The notes under the pieces: generated by a model | Seen by the model: the letters and a program-made list of their open reading frames with translations, nothing else | Databases searched by the model: none | What the model was told of the DNA's origin: nothing | Shown here: one piece after another, positions 2,980-33,049 of the stretch | How positions within the stretch are numbered: the stretch's first letter is position 1 | How the letters are laid out: each line of letters begins with the position of its first letter | Position numbers and translations under genes: made by a program | Virus record (IMG/VR): IMGVR_UViG_3300024999_000067 | Coordinates: 22,589 to 86,588 of that record | Strand: one strand, 5' to 3' | DNA: 64,000 bases | Source of the DNA: a virus

Positions 2980-3222
2980 TTGATTCTTTATCTCGCAGGT
3001 GGATTCCACTTTAGTAATACTGTAGAGTCCGAGAAAAAACTAGCGGTGCAAATGATTTCCCTATATAATCGATACAATAGACTTGCAACTTTCTTCTACC
3101 AGAAGGATGCACGAAACATAATAACTGTCATGGAGGAATTAAATGGAGACAAAGGAATTGGTACGGATAGTCAATCTTCTCATGGTTGCAGTAGAGAGGA
3201 AAGCAGTAGTATCCCAGTATGA
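2980..3222 (+). CDS. Small protein resembling the N-terminal LYLAG segment of DpdA-like proteins
   Basis: MILYLAGG...NRLATFFY; GGAGG Shine-Dalgarno (SD) upstream of a TTG start. Confidence 0.5.
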   Translation: MILYLAGGFHFSNTVESEKKLAVQMISLYNRYNRLATFFYQKDARNIITVMEELNGDKGIGTDSQSSHGCSREESSSIPV

Positions 3223-4222
3223 TCACGTAGTGTTCTATGGTGGTGCAATCTCAACATTTAACGGTAAGATATTTATTTCCCACCCTGTTGATCTTGATCT
3301 GGAATGTTCTGTTCCAGCAGAAGACTTGTTAAACATTCTGAAGACGGTAGAAGACAAAGAAGTAACATTGACGGTGGACAAAAATCTGTTGAAGATTAAA
3401 TCCAGTGATGTAGAAGCAGAACTGTCCACCGATGTTTACGAAGACAATGTTGTTAAAACCATTAAGTTTCTGGACATTGGTAAATTTAACAAAACCGATT
3501 ACAAGAAGGCAGCCAAAGAATTCATCCAGGCATTGAACGATTGCCGTTTCAGTGTTGGTAAAGATGTATCCTGTTCCCATAATTCCTTCTGCATTCATGT
3601 GGTTGAGGAAGCTGTGGAATCTACTGACGGTTACAGGTGCTCAGAATATATAATGGATTCTGTTATGGATGAGATGCTTTTACCAGTATCTTCAGTAAAT
3701 TCTCTCTTGTCCTTTGCCCCTGTCTACTATGTACTTGACAATGGCTGGGCACATTTTATCGATGAAAACGATGTTTTCTTTTCTATATCGGTTATCAAGG
3801 GAACCTTTCCAGATGTTCCTAAGATCATGGATAGAGCAAAGGCAGAAGTGGAAGTGGCATTACCGATTCAGATAGCAAATATTCTAAGTGAATTTGGGAA
3901 GCTCTCTTCAGGGGAGACTGATATTTACAAGTTCATGGAAGTGGAAATTAAAGGTAAGGAAATTATCTGTAAGACGGATAAGCAGGGCTGTTCGGTAAAG
4001 AAAAAGATTCCTTTTCCCGAAAGCCAAACTGACCTAACATTCCTTATCAGTCCCACGTTGCTGAACAGTGTATTATCGAAAACGAATATTATCGGTATAA
4101 ACTATACCAGTAACATGGCATCCTTTTCTTCAAAGAACTTTACTCATGTAATGGTTCTGCCTGAAGGGAAGGAAGTGAAAGAGGAAGTATATACTGGAAC
4201 AGGTTCCGACGTCCCTTTTTAG
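3143..4222 (+). CDS. dnaN: DNA polymerase III beta-like sliding clamp
   Basis: 359 aa; STDGYR motif and GTFPDV linker typical of beta clamps. Confidence 0.7.
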   Translation: METKELVRIVNLLMVAVERKAVVSQYDHVVFYGGAISTFNGKIFISHPVDLDLECSVPAEDLLNILKTVEDKEVTLTVDKNLLKIKSSDVEAELSTDVYEDNVVKTIKFLDIGKFNKTDYKKAAKEFIQALNDCRFSVGKDVSCSHNSFCIHVVEEAVESTDGYRCSEYIMDSVMDEMLLPVSSVNSLLSFAPVYYVLDNGWAHFIDENDVFFSISVIKGTFPDVPKIMDRAKAEVEVALPIQIANILSEFGKLSSGETDIYKFMEVEIKGKEIICKTDKQGCSVKKKIPFPESQTDLTFLISPTLLNSVLSKTNIIGINYTSNMASFSSKNFTHVMVLPEGKEVKEEVYTGTGSDVPF

Positions 4223-4371
4223 GATGGTACAAATGGTATATGTAAACGATAAGTATGTGGAACCGGAAGTGTTATGGTGCAGAAGATGTGGAAAAGTTAT
4301 TTTAGTAGTAGTTTTTCCTGGAATGCAACCAGAACACTTACTTTGCGAAGACTGTAAACTGGAGAGGAAAC

Positions 4372-5316
4372 ATGAAAACAAAAACCATTAAGACAGTGCT
4401 GCGAAAGAAGATTGACAGTTGGCTGAAGTCTATTGCTAATGAAAGAATCCGTAAGATTGCAGAAGAGAATACAATAGTAACTGGTGGTTGCATAGCCAGT
4501 ATGCTGTTGGGAGAAAAGGTAAATGATTACGATATATATTTCCGTTCACAGTTAGCAGCAAAAGAGATTGCAGAGTATTACATTGGATTGTTTTCCATTA
4601 AGAACAGGGAAGGAATTCCATGTAAAATCTATGTAGAGTCTACTGAAGACAGGGTAAAGATTGTGGTTAAGTCTGCTGGTATTGCAAGTGCAGATGGAAC
4701 AGAAAAACCGTATGAATATTTTGAAGGATCACCAGAACAGAATGCTTCCAATTATGTATCAGAAGTAATGCAGGACCCAGGAGAAATTGAAGATAAGTTT
4801 GAAGAGGTATCGGAAAAGATTGAAGATCAGGCAGAAGATACCGATACCCAGTACAAGCCTGTCTTCCTGAGTACAAATGCAATTACTTTGAGTGGTAAGA
4901 TTCAGATGGTGTTCCGTTTCTTTGGGGAACCTGAAGAAATCCACAAGTATTACGACTTCATGCATTGTACAAATTACTGGACAAGTTGGGACGATAAACT
5001 GGAACTGAAGAAAGAAGCATTAGCCTGTTTGCTTTCCAGAGAATTGATTTATGTTGGCAGCAAATATCCGATATGCTCTATCTTTCGTGTCCGTAAGTTT
5101 ATTAAACGTAACTTTACCATTAATGCTGGGCAAATTCTGAAAATCTGTATGCAGATATCGGAACTGGATTTAACCAAGATAGAAGTATTGCAGGATCAGC
5201 TTACTGGTGTAGACTGTGCTTACTTTCTAGAAGTTATTGGTAAGTTGAAAGAGAAAGATCCAGAGGTTGTAAATTCAGCCTATCTTATTGAAATAATTGA
5301 TCGCATGTTTAATTAA
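4372..5316 (+). CDS. Pol-beta-superfamily nucleotidyltransferase
   Basis: VTGGCIAS...VNDYDIYF (GG...DxD) signature; downstream YDF.HC motif. Confidence 0.65.
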   Translation: MKTKTIKTVLRKKIDSWLKSIANERIRKIAEENTIVTGGCIASMLLGEKVNDYDIYFRSQLAAKEIAEYYIGLFSIKNREGIPCKIYVESTEDRVKIVVKSAGIASADGTEKPYEYFEGSPEQNASNYVSEVMQDPGEIEDKFEEVSEKIEDQAEDTDTQYKPVFLSTNAITLSGKIQMVFRFFGEPEEIHKYYDFMHCTNYWTSWDDKLELKKEALACLLSRELIYVGSKYPICSIFRVRKFIKRNFTINAGQILKICMQISELDLTKIEVLQDQLTGVDCAYFLEVIGKLKEKDPEVVNSAYLIEIIDRMFN

Positions 5317-5326
5317 TGGAGAAAAT

Positions 5327-5857
5327 ATGATTGATATAATGCTGGATCTTGAGACTATGGGAAATGGTAACAATGCTGCTATTGCCGCTATTGGTGCTGT
5401 AAACTTTGATCTTACTACTGGTGAAATAGGAGAAGGGTTCTATGAAGTAGTTGATCTGGAATCTTCTGTTAGACATGGTGGTGTTATGGATGTTTCTACC
5501 GTATTATGGTGGATGCAACAATCAGATACAGCAAGAGCCGAGTTTAAGCGGGAAGGGAAACATATACAAATGGCATTAGTGTCCTTCCAAACATATCTTG
5601 CATCTTTTACAGGGGAAGTAGCCTTATGGGGTAACGGTGCTGTTTTCGATAATGTAATTCTAAAATCGGCTTATGATCGTGGTGGATTGATTCTACCGTG
5701 GCACTTTAAAAACGATAGGTGTTACAGAACAATGCGGGCAATGCTCCCTGTTGTAGAATTGCCTGAGATTGCTGGTACCCATCATAGAGCTATTGATGAT
5801 GCAAGGTGGCAAGCCCAGTATCTTATTGAAGCATGGAAGTTAAGAGAACAAAATTAA
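5327..5857 (+). CDS. DEDDh 3'-5' exonuclease (Rv2179c/ExoVIII-like)
   Basis: MLDLETMG, WGNGAVFDN, RCYRT, HRAIDDA motifs. Confidence 0.85.
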   Translation: MIDIMLDLETMGNGNNAAIAAIGAVNFDLTTGEIGEGFYEVVDLESSVRHGGVMDVSTVLWWMQQSDTARAEFKREGKHIQMALVSFQTYLASFTGEVALWGNGAVFDNVILKSAYDRGGLILPWHFKNDRCYRTMRAMLPVVELPEIAGTHHRAIDDARWQAQYLIEAWKLREQN

Positions 5858-27159: not shown

Positions 27160-27554
27160 TTCCCTGTTTCCAACTCCAAATTTAGTACAGCCAAATCTAG
27201 CAAAGGTCTTACTTCAATCTTTGACTGCTCGGCAAAGTGGAGCAAATCTATTAGTAGACCAAGAATATCTGTTTCCAGCTTATCTTCACTAAATCCATCT
27301 GTATCTGGTGGTATCCATGCGAGTAGTGCTTTCTTTGCGCGTTCAGCACGTTCCTTATTAACGTACTTCATCGCAGACTTTCTACCATGTAAAGCGGCAT
27401 GAACGATGGTACTTGAACTTACTTTCTGCATTTTACATAGGTCCAGCAAGTTGCCACAAGAGAGCAACCAATTCGATGATCAGCACTACAAGCAAGATAT
27501 TAATTGCTCGATTCATGGCACCATGTCCTCCACTATCGTTAGGTTATATACCAA

Positions 27555-27974
27555 TCACACTACATCATCGATATCTACATTCATTACTTCTTCCTTGGAT
27601 TTTGCCTCTTTGATTTTCTCCTTAGCGGCAAAGTATCCATCCTTTACATGCTTCATAACAGGCATCGCGTCAAACTCCAGTACATCCATTACAGCAGACG
27701 CACCACCATATCCGGCAAGCATTTGAGTAACGTAGTTGTCCAGTCTGGCAATGATCATAGGATCTTTAATAATCCCAGAGGATACTGCATAGCATAGAAG
27801 CACCCCGCGAAGAACATCGGTTATATTATCTTCGCAATCTCCTATTTCTGCTGCTAGTTTCTCTCGCATTTTGATTTTCAAGAATCTTTCACGAGACAGT
27901 TTATCTAATTCAATATCAGTCTCTTCACCTGTAAGGTATTTGCCGTACACTTGAAATTCTTCTACTGGTAGCAT
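27555..27974 (-). CDS. Hypothetical helical protein downstream of DGR RT (possible fibre chaperone)
   Basis: Start overlaps the 3' end of the RT ORF; C-terminal KIKEAKSKEEV..VD resembles tail-fibre-assembly proteins. Confidence 0.45.
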   Translation of the reverse strand: MLPVEEFQVYGKYLTGEETDIELDKLSRERFLKIKMREKLAAEIGDCEDNITDVLRGVLLCYAVSSGIIKDPMIIARLDNYVTQMLAGYGGASAVMDVLEFDAMPVMKHVKDGYFAAKEKIKEAKSKEEVMNVDIDDVV

Positions 27975-28603
27975 AATCCTAACCTCCCTTGATGTGATTG
28001 TGGTAGACGACTCACCATTGCAGCGTTATTCAAAATAACAGACTTTAGTATTTTTATACTACTAGTCTTTTGTGAATGTGCAATTATAGATCCAACTGTA
28101 ATTATATTTCCTTTAAGTACTGCCTTCTTAAATTTACATAAACTATACTTACGGATCAATCTGTGAGTAGGCCACGTTCTATACCCAACAAAGTTTATAC
28201 CGTCAGCAACAGTTCTTTTCGACCATTTGGATAAATGCAGGTGTAGTCTAGTAAACAAATACTCTTCAATATTCTTTCTGGCCATGGAGGCTTCAGCAGA
28301 TGACATTCCTATTAGTACCATATCGTCAACATAGCGGACATACCTGCATATTTTAAGTTTTCTTTTAATATAATGATCTGCAGGATTTAGATAAATTAAA
28401 GCGTATAGCTGTGATAGTAAATTTCCTAATGGGATTCCCTTACCCATTCCTAGGCAAGTGTAAAATTGTTTCATTACGCTAAGCAGCTGTTCATCTTTTA
28501 TCTTATTTCTTATTAATTTTTCAAGAACTATTCTATCAATAGAAGGAAAGAATTTTCTTACGTCAAGATGAAGTGTGTAAAGACTTTTAGAACAATTTTT
28601 CAT
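27962..28603 (-). pseudogene. DGR-type reverse transcriptase, N-terminally truncated
   Basis: LDVRKFFPSIDR (RT3), GIPLGNLLSQ (DGR-specific SQ), YVRYVDD, INFVGY; RT0-2 absent; frame closed by TAG 10 codons upstream of the ATG. Confidence 0.85.
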
Positions 28604-28685
28604 AGAAAAGTAAGCGTAATCGCATAAGTTCTATATACTTATGCATTATTACTCCTTCTCTACTATACTTCTTTCCTGTAGACAT
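28587..28685 (-). pseudogene. Remnant 5' end of avd (accessory variability determinant)
   Basis: MSTGKKYSREGVIMHKYIELMRL begins just after the VR hairpin, where avd normally sits, and resembles Avd N-termini. Confidence 0.45.
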
Positions 28686-28695
28686 ATTACAGAGC

Positions 28696-28709
28696 CGCGC
28701 TATCGCGCG
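28696..28709 (-). promoter_or_regulatory. DGR homing hairpin downstream of VR/IMH
   Basis: CGCGC-GATA-GCGCG directly after the target stop codon. Confidence 0.7.
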
Positions 28710-28710
28710 A

Positions 28711-28830
28711 CTAGACAGGGTAACAGGCGGAGCGACCACCATAGTGCGCGTTAGAGAAGGAACGGATGCTGCCCAGGTAACGGAGCCAAACCCCGGCAAG
28801 CGAGCCAGCGTTCCAGTTCCCACTACCTAT
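28711..28830 (-). repeat. DGR variable repeat (VR); no template repeat found
   Basis: GC-rich, A-poor 3' end of target gene; NNY codons at the typical variable positions of GxWxxGxxAGVWxxxLxxxRxxSxxxxGxRSA. Confidence 0.75.
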
Positions 28831-30360
28831 AACGCATAACTGATCTCTAATGTACTGATAGAATCCATCTTTTCCAAATAAGTCTGTACCTGTGGTTGAA
28901 ATCCCTGAACTGTCTTTAGGAAAACCAATAGAAGTCAAGGCGTAGGAATTACCACTTGCTCCATTAGATAAAACTTGGTTTGTTCCGTTACCAAATAATT
29001 GAGTTACGGAAGAACCACCAGATGCAGCAATAAAAGGCATAGTAATAGCCTCCATCATTGCTGCAACTCCAACTGATCCCCAATGATCTGTGGCTAGAGT
29101 AGCTCCTGCAGTGAAAGATTTCATAGATACTGACTCTTTCGCTACATAAAAAGACCCTGTATAGATTGTTCCACCAGAAACCCATGCAGTATACCCAGTA
29201 GCATTAACTCCATCTAAAGTAAAATTAGTAGGATCAACTACAGTCACAGTAAACAATTTATCGTTTAGCTGCGTAGTTCCCACAATAGATGTAATATTAA
29301 CAATTTGTCCAGTAGTATATCCATGGGCTGCTGTGGTTGTGACCTGACATGGATTAGCTAACGTAATAGCAGATATGGCTTTAGTTGTTACAATGCTTGT
29401 CATTCCAATTAAAATCTGCCACATATTTCCATTTATATCAGATACACCACAAGCTTGTCCATTGTGCGTAGTTTTAGCAAATAGATTTCCAGATCCTGTT
29501 TTGGCACAATTTGGATATCCATCAGAAACATACAGGACTGTAGTATCATTAGTATCCCTTAGTGCGTTATTGTTGTTCCCTTTAGGAAAGTTTGTAGTAG
29601 CGGATGCCCACCAAGCGCAATTCGCAGTACCAGTCGCAGCTTGCCCATGCGCTAAAGAAAGCATAGCAAGTGCAGAACTCATGAATACAGATTGATTAAA
29701 AAATATACTTGAGTTATTTACAGCACCATTTACACCATCTCTCGCTTTCGCAGCAGTAAGGAAAGCATAATTTGCATTTATTCCTAATACTGACGTAAGA
29801 GCACTGATAGGATTATGATCTGATCCAGAAGAAAGTGGTAATCCATTCTTTATAGAACTTGCGATAAAACCAGTCCCCTTGGCGTTTTTACTGACTTGAT
29901 ACTTATCAATGAAGAATCCAGGCTGCTCTACACCACCATCAATAAATGCCCTATGTAACACGAATCCAGCAGCAGTCGCAGCAGCCCTATTAGCAAATGT
30001 TTCTGATCCGACAATATTAATATCGTTAGGAGTGTAAATTGAATAAGTAGGGTTTTCAGAATGGTTTATCCTGTAAAAGAACTTAGGAATCCAGACCATT
30101 ACGGAACCATCAGAGAACTGGTAGTTTCCATAATTAGGGGAAAGAGGATCGGAATATCCTGACATGGGGGTAAATCCAACAGGTAGTACAGCAGGATCAC
30201 AAACTCCTACTCCAAATCCAGTAGAACCTGGGAGTCCTATGGTCATTACATTTCCAAGTATGCCAGCATGCATCCAGCCAGGATTGCCAAGTGTATCTTG
30301 ACCGTAAACTTTTGCTCCATTGGTCGATATTGGGGCAGCCGAAGTATTAATGTTTGGCAT
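28711..30360 (-). CDS. DGR target / receptor-binding protein with C-type lectin (FGE-like) fold
   Basis: VMVWIPKF, FFIDKYQ, THNG..CGVSDINGNMWQ and C-terminal CLec VR motif. Confidence 0.85.
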   Translation of the reverse strand: MPNINTSAAPISTNGAKVYGQDTLGNPGWMHAGILGNVMTIGLPGSTGFGVGVCDPAVLPVGFTPMSGYSDPLSPNYGNYQFSDGSVMVWIPKFFYRINHSENPTYSIYTPNDINIVGSETFANRAAATAAGFVLHRAFIDGGVEQPGFFIDKYQVSKNAKGTGFIASSIKNGLPLSSGSDHNPISALTSVLGINANYAFLTAAKARDGVNGAVNNSSIFFNQSVFMSSALAMLSLAHGQAATGTANCAWWASATTNFPKGNNNNALRDTNDTTVLYVSDGYPNCAKTGSGNLFAKTTHNGQACGVSDINGNMWQILIGMTSIVTTKAISAITLANPCQVTTTAAHGYTTGQIVNITSIVGTTQLNDKLFTVTVVDPTNFTLDGVNATGYTAWVSGGTIYTGSFYVAKESVSMKSFTAGATLATDHWGSVGVAAMMEAITMPFIAASGGSSVTQLFGNGTNQVLSNGASGNSYALTSIGFPKDSSGISTTGTDLFGKDGFYQYIRDQLCVIGSGNWNAGSLAGVWLRYLGSIRSFSNAHYGGRSACYPV

Positions 30361-30361
30361 A

Positions 30362-33049
30362 TCAAACTCCTAGGTATAGATTTTCATTGTTTATTGTAAG
30401 TTCTACAAAGTTTACAGATATGTATGGTGGTAGCCCTAAAACACGGTCTACTCTTAGTTGGTCGGCGAAACTAAGAGGTGTTCTGTAGACCGCCATGCCC
30501 CTATCCCCGATCCGTATCTTCGCTGTCGGCACCAGCGCAGCCAGATCGACACTGGCGTTGCCGGTGAACTCGGGGATGAGCTGAAAGTCTCTGCCGAGGG
30601 GGGCCTGAAAGTTGCCGACTGGGAAGGCTGTACCATCGAATGCGCCGTCTATGCCGAGGGGTCCGGGAACAACAACAGGAGTGCTCTCGGCTTTGGCAAA
30701 ATCAAAAATTGTCCCATTGAATACGCCCACTCCATCAGTTTTACTGCCGATAAAAATAGTCTCTCCCCAGCCGATTGCGGCGGTAACTGTCTCGTCGGTA
30801 TCAGTTGCGCCGTTCAGGATCATTGTTGTCCCTGTGGGTGTGTGATCAATCACTAGAGTGTTGATCTCGTTCAGCGCCACTGAGCCTGATGAAGTCAATA
30901 TCGCGGACCCGCCGCCCGAATAAACAATTTTGTTCAGAGCCGAGATATAAATACCATTTGTTCCATCAGACAACAGCCATTGCTCTGTGTCGGCCAGGTT
31001 GGGGATAAACTTTATACTGATTTCGTCGCGTCCGCTCAGTCCAGTGTCCGTCAGGGTGTCAGCAATATTTGTCTCCCCAGGAATTGATACAACGCCATCA
31101 ATTGTGTGATAATTACTCGCCGCCCCGGTCCACACAACATCTCCGTCAGATACAGGGGCAGAATTATCAGGGAATGTGACGGCATCAGCAGAAGTTGTCC
31201 CGCCAGTCGTGCAGGTAAACCATCTCTTAATGCTGTCTGAGCATACAGCAGAGATCTTATCTCCGATGGAGTATGCAGTTGATCTCCTGGATGGTAAGTG
31301 TGTGTCAAATATTTTATTGCCATCAACAGTGGTGTATGGCTGCAATGTTACGGACTGGTTCGGAGATAGTATGGCTATTCCTGCGGCAATGGCCAGGTGG
31401 CCGGCTGAATTAGAATGGAGACCATCTGAGGAGTCGTAGGCAGCTAATATATTAATGGTTCCAGGATCACGGAGGATCTCATACAAATCAATCTTGTCAC
31501 GGTCTAGCGTCCTCACCCATGCGCTGTATGCCTCTGCCCTTGACTGTTTGTCTGCGGTCCAGCCAGAATAATTTCCAAACGGTGGAATTGTACAGATAAT
31601 CGGATGGATAGATGCTGCATCAGCCTTAGCAAGCATTGAGTTGAGCGATGCTTGCATGTCTGCCAAGGTCCGTGCAGTATTAATCACATCATTAACACCA
31701 CCCATTATCAGCACTGCAATCGGAGCACCAGCAACAACGTCAGTGGCAAACCGAGTATCAAGATCAGCCAAAGTCTGCCCGGAGATACCAGATTTAACCA
31801 TCCCTGTTATCCCGATGATTTGACCGAGATGCGTGATATATGTTCCGGTGGCTGTGTAGGAATCTCCAATAGCTACAGACTTGTTGAGTTTGTTGTACTG
31901 GACAGTGTCATGCAGCACAGATTTAGTGGCACTGGTGGTTTTGATATACTCGAATGGCATCAACCGTGGCCGGCCTGTAATAATCTCAGCTTGATATCCA
32001 GTAACTGTAAACGCCTTATTGGAATTTGTTGGGTATGCAATAACCCCAAAATTTCTGTTTGCTGCGCCAGCAGTAGTGGTGCGGACCGCAGAACATTTGT
32101 ACGTTCCATCTGGTTGCAACTCAGGGATATTTGCAACTGTGGTTATGTTAGCATCTATACTGAGCATCAGGTCGCTATTAACGTCAGTTGTGGAGACCCC
32201 AATACGTGGGACCGAATCGTCTGCCATCTTGACAAAACAGGAAAATCTGTACACATATCCAGTCACGGTGGTTAATTGCTTAAACGCTGACCGGAATGTA
32301 GCTGATTCGGGGAAAAGTAGAGCATTAACAAAACCGGCAAGCGAGGTGACAGTTACATTTGCGGTCGTGGAGTTGAGATCGGCTTTGCCGTTTGTAAACT
32401 CTGACTCTAATAGCAGATTCTTCGCAATCCTACTGCCTTTAATAGCTGGAGATAGTCCACCAGAGGAATACACAGCCGACATATCAGCATCAGTGCCACT
32501 GTAATCTGCTACAGCCGTTGTAGGTGCGTCAATGGTCAACGCCCCGGTTGTTACAGCGCCTGTGGAGCTTATCCGGTAAAGCACACCACCCGGGAGGGAG
32601 AATCCGTTCTCATTGACATAGTTCGTCCCGCTCCCGTCCAGCCTTTCGGTAATTGTCGTACCCACCAGCCCTGTCAGGTGATGACCATTACCCGAGGCGT
32701 CAAGCTCCGTAGCCTGGCCGACATTAATCCCCTTCCAACTCGCCCACCTCACACCATCCCGGAACACATCAATATCCCAACAATCCGGCCCAGGGAATGT
32801 CAGCGTACCATTCACGGTACATGTCGGAGCGTCGCCGGAGGCTGTGATGGTGTCGGTGACCAACAGGCCGGGGCAGGGTGAGCTGCCCGCGCCGAGGAAG
32901 CCGCTGGACTTTACTTGCTGGGTGGTGTGGTTGGCATGAGGATATCTGGCGACGAGCTTGCCGTCTGTTACAGTAGTCTTGTAATAAGCAAGCAGGGTAT
33001 CCCGATTAGGAAGTGATCTTCTATTATTAAGTAAACCAAAGTTTAGCAT
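30362..33049 (-). CDS. Tail fibre/spike with SGNH (GDSL) esterase and lectin-like domains
   Basis: GDSYT, GISGQ, GGVND, DGLH SGNH blocks; LamG-like FIG...FNGTIFD. Confidence 0.75.
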   Translation of the reverse strand: MLNFGLLNNRRSLPNRDTLLAYYKTTVTDGKLVARYPHANHTTQQVKSSGFLGAGSSPCPGLLVTDTITASGDAPTCTVNGTLTFPGPDCWDIDVFRDGVRWASWKGINVGQATELDASGNGHHLTGLVGTTITERLDGSGTNYVNENGFSLPGGVLYRISSTGAVTTGALTIDAPTTAVADYSGTDADMSAVYSSGGLSPAIKGSRIAKNLLLESEFTNGKADLNSTTANVTVTSLAGFVNALLFPESATFRSAFKQLTTVTGYVYRFSCFVKMADDSVPRIGVSTTDVNSDLMLSIDANITTVANIPELQPDGTYKCSAVRTTTAGAANRNFGVIAYPTNSNKAFTVTGYQAEIITGRPRLMPFEYIKTTSATKSVLHDTVQYNKLNKSVAIGDSYTATGTYITHLGQIIGITGMVKSGISGQTLADLDTRFATDVVAGAPIAVLIMGGVNDVINTARTLADMQASLNSMLAKADAASIHPIICTIPPFGNYSGWTADKQSRAEAYSAWVRTLDRDKIDLYEILRDPGTINILAAYDSSDGLHSNSAGHLAIAAGIAILSPNQSVTLQPYTTVDGNKIFDTHLPSRRSTAYSIGDKISAVCSDSIKRWFTCTTGGTTSADAVTFPDNSAPVSDGDVVWTGAASNYHTIDGVVSIPGETNIADTLTDTGLSGRDEISIKFIPNLADTEQWLLSDGTNGIYISALNKIVYSGGGSAILTSSGSVALNEINTLVIDHTPTGTTMILNGATDTDETVTAAIGWGETIFIGSKTDGVGVFNGTIFDFAKAESTPVVVPGPLGIDGAFDGTAFPVGNFQAPLGRDFQLIPEFTGNASVDLAALVPTAKIRIGDRGMAVYRTPLSFADQLRVDRVLGLPPYISVNFVELTINNENLYLGV

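Follow-up and report, generated by a model that had tools for sequence, protein, structure and literature searches.

A tail-fiber diversity-generating retroelement of a groundwater phage, very probably inactivated by a single internal deletion

Here, we analyzed a diversity-generating retroelement (DGR) in a 64,000-nucleotide stretch of phage DNA (hereafter, the window), the final 64 kb (positions 22,589-86,588) of the linear 86,588-bp IMG/VR virus record IMGVR_UViG_3300024999_000067. Our analysis indicates that a DGR with the layout of the Bordetella phage BPP-1 element, that is, a target gene with its variable region (VR) and hairpin, followed by avd, the template repeat (TR) and the reverse transcriptase (RT) gene, was very probably inactivated by one internal deletion of about 1 kb. 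This conclusion rests on the anatomy of the locus, the absence of a TR from the record, a junction that is real, and the recurrence of such deletions in relatives. The deletion would extend from avd codon 23/24 to RT codon 119 and would have removed the body of the Avd four-helix bundle, the entire TR along with the RNA spacer, and the fingers of the RT, which comprise motifs 1, 2, and 2a. A locus that has lost both template and polymerase could not carry out mutagenic retrohoming, so that the tip of the tail fiber would keep whichever variant the VR received last. An initial annotation of this DNA had proposed that one deletion took most of avd, the TR and the RT N-terminus, a proposal now borne out by synteny with an intact relative and by contigs that cross the junction. 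The locus lies on the minus strand; coordinates are those of the window.

The intact relative, locus L003 (IMGVR_UViG_3300025000_000221; L004 is the same contig), preserves the complete order of target, avd, TR, RT, and downstream gene. It encodes a 543-aa target followed by a GATA hairpin, a 134-aa Avd, the TR, an RT of 365 aa as counted from the conserved MKRYGNLF start (391 aa from the first in-frame start codon, TTG), and a downstream protein of 140 aa. Its TR and VR differ at 24 of 120 positions, 22 of which are TR adenines (19 of 19 in the core repeat), and L003 can thus be taken as a bona fide, working-type DGR. The window resembles L003 in the target (72% identity), the Avd N-terminus (63%), the RT (62%), and the downstream gene (78%), and shares with it the end of the VR described below; the two differ in that L003 is a complete cassette in a GC-rich, integrase-bearing 40-kb contig, whereas the window belongs to an AT-rich phage. 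Alignment to the Avd and RT of L003 places the deletion junction at 28617-28621: Avd homology stops at TTA (28619-28617) and RT homology begins at GAT (28621-28619), the two sides sharing up to 5 nt (GATTA). Compared with L003, bases 3005-3982, about 978 bp, are missing. The position first given for the junction, near 28625, was correct to within a few bases, although not the exact site.

On the avd side of the scar stands an open reading frame (ORF) of 32 codons (28587-28685), in which residues 5-23 match residues 3-21 of the L003 Avd by BLASTP (12 of 19 identical, 63%; E 9e-8), in agreement with the roughly 23 codons of Avd N-terminus recognized at the outset. Only codons 5-23 (28617-28673) derive from avd, the rest being an out-of-frame reading of RT DNA; with just 19 homologous N-terminal residues left, the Avd profile PF05635 has no match in the record. 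On the other side, an RT remnant comprising motifs 3-7 and the thumb (27962-28621) was delimited by Pfam RVT_1, PHROG 1423, and an alignment of the family. Its ORF (27962-28603, with ATG at 28603) encodes 213 aa without an internal stop and overlaps the end of the Avd stub in another frame; upstream, a TAG at 28633-28631 closes the RT frame, and 107 nt separate the target stop from the RT ATG, close to the original estimate of ~110 bp. The remnant matches only positions 65-204 of the 205-position RVT_1 profile and begins at column 120 of the family alignment (DYAYFSM versus SDCAYHAM), with 118 N-terminal residues gone. Motifs 1, 2, and 2a and the ACRxGKGTH motif are lacking; LGNLLSQ, with the SQ dipeptide that typifies motif 4 of DGR RTs, and YVDD, the YxDD of motif 5, are kept. 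All close homologs of the remnant are DGR RTs, with identities of 35% to BPP-1 Brt, 45% to the RT of Pseudomonas phage Bise, and 62-64% to the nearest metagenomic relatives. By its sequence, the remnant is a member of the DGR RT clade by descent and is incomplete as an enzyme.

Repeats of the VR/TR kind often confuse assemblers, and the junction might for that reason be suspected of being an assembly artifact. This explanation is effectively refuted. The junction is not in a repeat, and it is crossed without a difference by separate Logan contigs from three samples, which answers the concern about misassembly raised in the initial annotation. Over window positions 27500-30400, the Logan contig of run X1 (5,101 bp, depth 15.7), from sample S1, probably the source, covered the whole interval with 0 differences. 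The same perfect agreement was found for the contig of runs X2/X3 (511 bp) from sample S2, which spans the junction, the stub, the hairpin, and the entire VR (28565-29075), and for that of run X4 (174 bp) from sample S3 (28545-28718); bins left uncovered in X2-X4 carry no information. At the junction, none of the Logan contigs shows a loose end or an alternative joint. Furthermore, the exact 213-aa RT stub and the exact 549-aa target are on record in JGI, ENA, and Logan assemblies, which give the same proteins, the longest contig being 88,724 bp; the exact junction pattern had no match in IMG/VR, in a search from which own records may be excluded. The deletion junction is real, and misassembly is excluded.

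The part of the element that remains is the part that receives diversity. The DGR target gene (28711-30360) encodes a 549-aa tail-fiber-type variable protein, identified from its ORF, PHROG tail matches, an AlphaFold model, and a PDB match. The model (mean predicted local distance difference test score 89.4), built on 27 homologs, finds its best PDB match in TaqVP, the DGR variable protein of Thermus aquaticus (5vf4; E 4e-11), so that the C-type-lectin assignment made at first is supported by the predicted fold. This fold is visible by structure comparison alone: by sequence, Pfam and the PDB each match only the insert, an E1_FCCH-like beta-barrel at residues ~328-417 (window 29100-29380; Pfam PF16190, E 2.6e-8). 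Domains of the E1_FCCH type also match phage tail proteins in the PDB and PHROG 584. The target family is large, with 3,245 representatives at E <= 0.001, and no paralog of the target was found in the 86,588-bp record.

The VR occupies approximately the last 115 nt of the target (28727-28840), as delimited by GC content and alignment to the L003 TR. Its GC content of 59%, against a background of ~38%, agrees with the GC-rich VR already seen in the letters. Compared with the L003 TR, the window VR differs at 19 of 30 TR-adenine positions versus 15 of 75 others (odds ratio 6.9, Fisher p 5e-5), a test that is indirect, the phage's own TR being lost and that of a relative serving as reference. The pattern fits past adenine mutagenesis from a similar, now lost, TR. 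At its 3′ end, the VR has a GC-rich block followed by TGTTACCCTGTCTAG (28711-28745), which is kept in the L003 VR end and not in the L003 TR end; by analogy with the BPP-1 model (PMC3240598), it is a putative initiation of mutagenic homing (IMH) sequence. The hairpin noticed after the target is likewise present as a predicted target-recognition hairpin with an 8-pair stem and a GATA loop (28693-28712; DNA fold -8.7 kcal/mol, z -2.7), beginning inside the target stop codon. The same GATA loop is present in L003 and fits GRNA, the loop consensus of phage DGR targets according to Guo et al. (PMC3240598). Thus, as far as sequence features go, the locus holds all that marks a DGR recipient site, namely, a VR at the 3′ end of a C-type-lectin-fold gene with adenine-biased differences, an IMH-like end, and then a GC-rich hairpin with a GRNA loop.

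By contrast, the parts needed for a functional DGR are wanting: the record holds no TR, no full-length RT, and no Avd four-helix bundle. Neither BLAST, used to look for a second VR copy or TR across the 86,588 bp, nor an ungapped adenine-tolerant scan detected a TR, the best non-self score of the scan being at background level; the absence of a TR, first noticed in the window, therefore extends to the whole record. The sole RT match in the record is the remnant (profile positions 61-204), with no second RT. In JGI metagenome contigs, we ran two IUPAC patterns built from the VR with N wherever the relative's TR has adenines. The first pattern gave 0 matches; the second gave a single match, rejected as a chance match in an unrelated high-GC gene, and 0 matches in viral contigs.

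These searches bear on the proposal that the target is recipient-only, its VR, IMH, and hairpin being kept since a DGR elsewhere, in the unassembled third of the genome, a co-infecting relative, or a host prophage, rewrites it in trans. The intact VR, IMH-like end, and GRNA-loop hairpin are what such a target would need: in BPP-1, VR, IMH, and hairpin suffice as a recipient, and avd-TR-brt on a plasmid serve phage that lack them (Guo et al., PMC3240598). Moreover, remote and partial targets are known (PMC4372165, PMC4891356), and the record is only ~68% complete. Diversification in trans, which the initial annotation had also entertained, is thus possible in principle, but no cognate TR occurs in the record or in the JGI metagenome contigs, and samples S1 and S2 have the same VR consensus, whereas the intact relatives L008-L010 differ from each other almost only in the VR. 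Given, in addition, that a recent deletion would be expected to leave the same cis elements in place, we consider a target still served from elsewhere very unlikely.

Comparison with other loci of the target family shows that inactivation by an internal deletion is not confined to the window. When loci sharing this family were scanned for a TR, a TR without any non-adenine mismatch was found in four of them (L004, on the L003 contig, L009, L010, and L012), and none was found in two loci with ample flank. The clearest case is L011 (4766-5241, against L009 2876-4560), which matches the intact L009 at 99.7% identity to either side of a clean gap: L011 1891-4875 corresponds to L009 1-2985 and L011 4875-6019 to L009 4237-5381, so that L011 lacks exactly L009 2986-4236 (1,251 bp), with a 1-nt overlap. 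The missing segment spans Avd codon 37 to approximately RT codon 227, including the TR, and leaves an RT stub of ~95 aa. To the left of the gap, 10 of the 11 differences between L011 and L009, and 11 of the 13 between L011 and L010, lie in the VR at TR-adenine positions, which looks like a DGR that was active between samples and was then frozen. L008 (IMGVR_UViG_3300005689_000094), a 16.4-kb contig from another metagenome, ends at 4875, the exact L011 junction base; this contig end could represent an assembly-graph branch between coexisting intact and deleted alleles.

In a third locus, L022 (CAMZLS010000076.1, a Helicobacteraceae metagenome-assembled genome; 2063-4035), an A-rich VR/TR-like repeat is fused directly to approximately RT codon 103; here the C-terminus of the 455-aa target is destroyed, out-of-frame RT sequence standing in its place, and the RT stub is an ORF of 214 aa (P0090). 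L005 (IMGVR_UViG_3300035180_000144; 3174-5588) encodes a 606-aa homologous target with a VR-like C-terminus. The usual downstream gene comes ~160 nt after this target, and the 41-kb record of L005 contains neither avd nor a TR or RT, which points either to an older complete loss or to a remote target. In a tblastn census of 94 related loci, the RT N-terminus is present in 85, and clear truncations are confined to three loci (the window, L011, and L022), one distant locus being a possible fourth; the census is biased in that L022 was found by a search with its own stub. L101, L095, and L100, which appear N-terminally short in tblastn, are distant relatives. P0032, a 261-aa protein encoded on a 28-kb contig, is a further N-terminally short DGR-type RT and has its start within motif 2; P0043 and P0078 are other short RTs. 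To judge from their sequences, the deletions in the window, L011, and L022 are independent events of the same kind.

Each of these events was most likely an illegitimate recombination or replication slippage rather than a site-specific process, given that no two events have the same endpoints and that 1-5 nt are shared at them. The left endpoint lies shortly inside avd in the window and L011 alike, and the right endpoint always spares the 3′ end of the RT gene. The simplest explanation for the confinement of the endpoints to avd-TR-RT would be purifying selection: a deletion extending into the target and its cis elements, or into the downstream gene at its start, would be disfavored. At the window junction, the DNA can also form an interrupted hairpin of 14 pairs (28616-28652; z -4.0), GTAAT-AA-TGCATAAGT / ACTTATGCG-ATTAC, the outer 3′ arm of which is the first RT-derived sequence. 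This hairpin may reflect a palindrome-stimulated deletion or chance; it was spotted post hoc, and about 1% of window positions are this near a perfect 8-bp hairpin. A general hairpin mechanism for such deletions is not supported, as no comparable hairpin occurs at the L009/L011 or L022 breakpoints.

Recurrence raises the question of whether the loss was selected. Switching hypermutation off would remove the load of non-functional fiber variants once the fit to the receptor is good, and freezing would then be repeated. Three independent deletions in one cassette family, together with one relative that has no cassette at all, agree with this proposal, as do the intact targets of the window and L011 and the sample data, in which the S1 consensus (~16x depth) carries the deletion and S2 and S3 contain it as well. 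However, recurrence is also expected from neutral decay, truncation is limited to the few census loci listed above, and the L022 deletion, which took the end of the target with it, represents decay, not freezing. Thus, the earlier wording that the phage "locked in" one variant implies a selection for which the evidence does not call, as neutral loss fits equally well, and we regard selected loss as an unlikely explanation. A broader form of the idea, in which tail-fiber DGRs are repeatedly shut by avd-to-RT deletions because this is advantageous once the receptor is well fitted and the VR-IMH-hairpin stays behind as a landing pad for related co-infecting DGR phages to rewrite, seems to us very unlikely. 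If true, it would mean that the DGR trait persists at the community level while individual genomes shed its cost.

The state of the RT remnant, which the initial annotation had reasonably described as either recent or in use, provides a further clue. The remnant departs from the consensus at 2 of the 33 columns that are invariant in seven intact RTs, no more than intact members of the clade, which depart at 0-3; the catalytic Asp residues are retained, and the frame stays open for 213 codons in DNA of 30-35% GC. One might suppose, on the strength of this long open frame in AT-rich DNA and of the preserved invariant residues, that the 213-aa stub is kept for a function of its own, for instance to interfere with related DGRs, or in a structural or regulatory capacity. 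However, its ATG at 28603 is not preceded by a Shine-Dalgarno sequence and has the closing TAG just upstream, polymerase activity is implausible with the fingers gone, and the stubs of L011 and L022 differ from it in extent. Moreover, the 3′ end of the RT gene is needed anyway for the start of the downstream gene (27555-27974; 139 aa), the conserved counterpart of the gene that follows the RT in L003, which has no Pfam or PHROG match; its start overlaps the last 13 nt of the RT gene, and its ribosome-binding site, GGGAGG, lies inside the RT 3′ end. We therefore hold a dedicated function of the stub to be highly improbable. The intact state of the stub points to a recent deletion or to a constraint on it, and we favor recency combined with the local constraint imposed by the start and ribosome-binding site of the downstream gene; that the deletion is evolutionarily recent is suggested by the lack of decay in the stub.

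Three points weigh against inactivation of a resident DGR by a single deletion. First, the databases hold no near-identical intact relative (the best RT is 64% identical), so that the pre-deletion sequence, the exact size of the loss, and the microhomology at the junction have to be derived from a distant relative. Second, the sequences that cross the junction are contigs, not reads, and a minority intact allele or low-level variation of the VR would be invisible in them. Third, the record is 68% complete by CheckV, the phage genome, which is AT-rich, being estimated at ~127 kb, and the unseen ~32% might hold another DGR whose TR matches the VR.

The sequencing runs trace the phage to groundwater metagenomes of one single study. 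The locus closes the tail module. It is preceded by a 2,346-aa gene of tape-measure size, genes for baseplate and tail proteins, and the gene for an 895-aa GDSL-esterase fiber, and lysis-like genes follow it downstream. Promoter and terminator scans gave only chance-level results, and no tyrosine integrase was found in the 86,588-bp record, an absence that is uninformative in a genome of this completeness. The GDSL-esterase/laminin-G tail-fiber gene (30362-33049, minus strand) has a GC content of 48-62% in its 3′ third (30400-31400), compared with ~38% for the genome, and this GC-rich segment adjoining the DGR target looks like a mosaic or recently acquired one.

The locus offers a clean natural example of a targeted-hypermutation system dying, in which one deletion spared the receptor-binding gene as well as its cis elements. 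The window and the L009/L011 pair jointly provide material on whether the loss of phage DGRs is neutral or selected, on how fast frozen VRs and RT stubs decay, and on whether such recipient sites can be served in trans. It also carries a warning for annotation: a VR-like C-terminus beside an RT match does not mean an active DGR. The precision of the scar, its confirmation in three samples, and the parallel, independent events in the same cassette family add a little to an interest that is otherwise modest.

One of the closest known systems is the element of BPP-1, with which the locus shares the gene order (mtd-VR-hairpin, avd, TR, brt), a place directly ahead of the lysis genes, where the tail module ends, a C-type-lectin-fold target with a C-terminal VR, and a GC-rich, GRNA-loop hairpin at the stop codon. 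Unlike in BPP-1, avd breaks off after 23 codons, there is no TR, and the N-terminal 118 residues of the RT are missing, and therefore the element cannot work; the target is also larger, with its inserted FCCH-like barrel. The same anatomy is found in the BPP-1 delta-ATR constructs (PMC3240598), in which, as in the window, VR, IMH, and hairpin are kept and avd-TR-brt are gone; those constructs, however, were engineered and complemented from a donor plasmid, whereas for the window we found no natural donor.

Targets that persist after the DGR core is lost have already been published, as have truncated DGR RTs (PMC4891356, PMC4372165, PMC3521204). Schillinger et al. described DGR RTs broken by transposon insertion, nonsense, or frameshift mutations (PMC3521204). 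Nimkulrat et al. reported Treponema denticola isolates without RT and TR that keep targets with VRs differing from known TRs at adenines, and regarded such targets as leftovers of lost cores in a history of multiple gains and losses (PMC4891356), and the nanoarchaeal partial DGRs of Paul et al. consist of a target, VR, and cis elements only (PMC4372165). As in the window, adenine-mutagenized VR targets have outlasted the loss or inactivation of RT and TR in these systems. They are, however, cellular genomes, or RTs broken by transposons, nonsense mutations, and frameshifts, whereas in the window a single deletion scar joins avd to the middle of the RT gene in a phage tail-fiber cassette, and among its relatives there is an intact/deleted pair that is 99.7% identical. 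Anatomically, the window thus shows in nature what was already known as a laboratory construct, and it adds one more case to a known process of decay.

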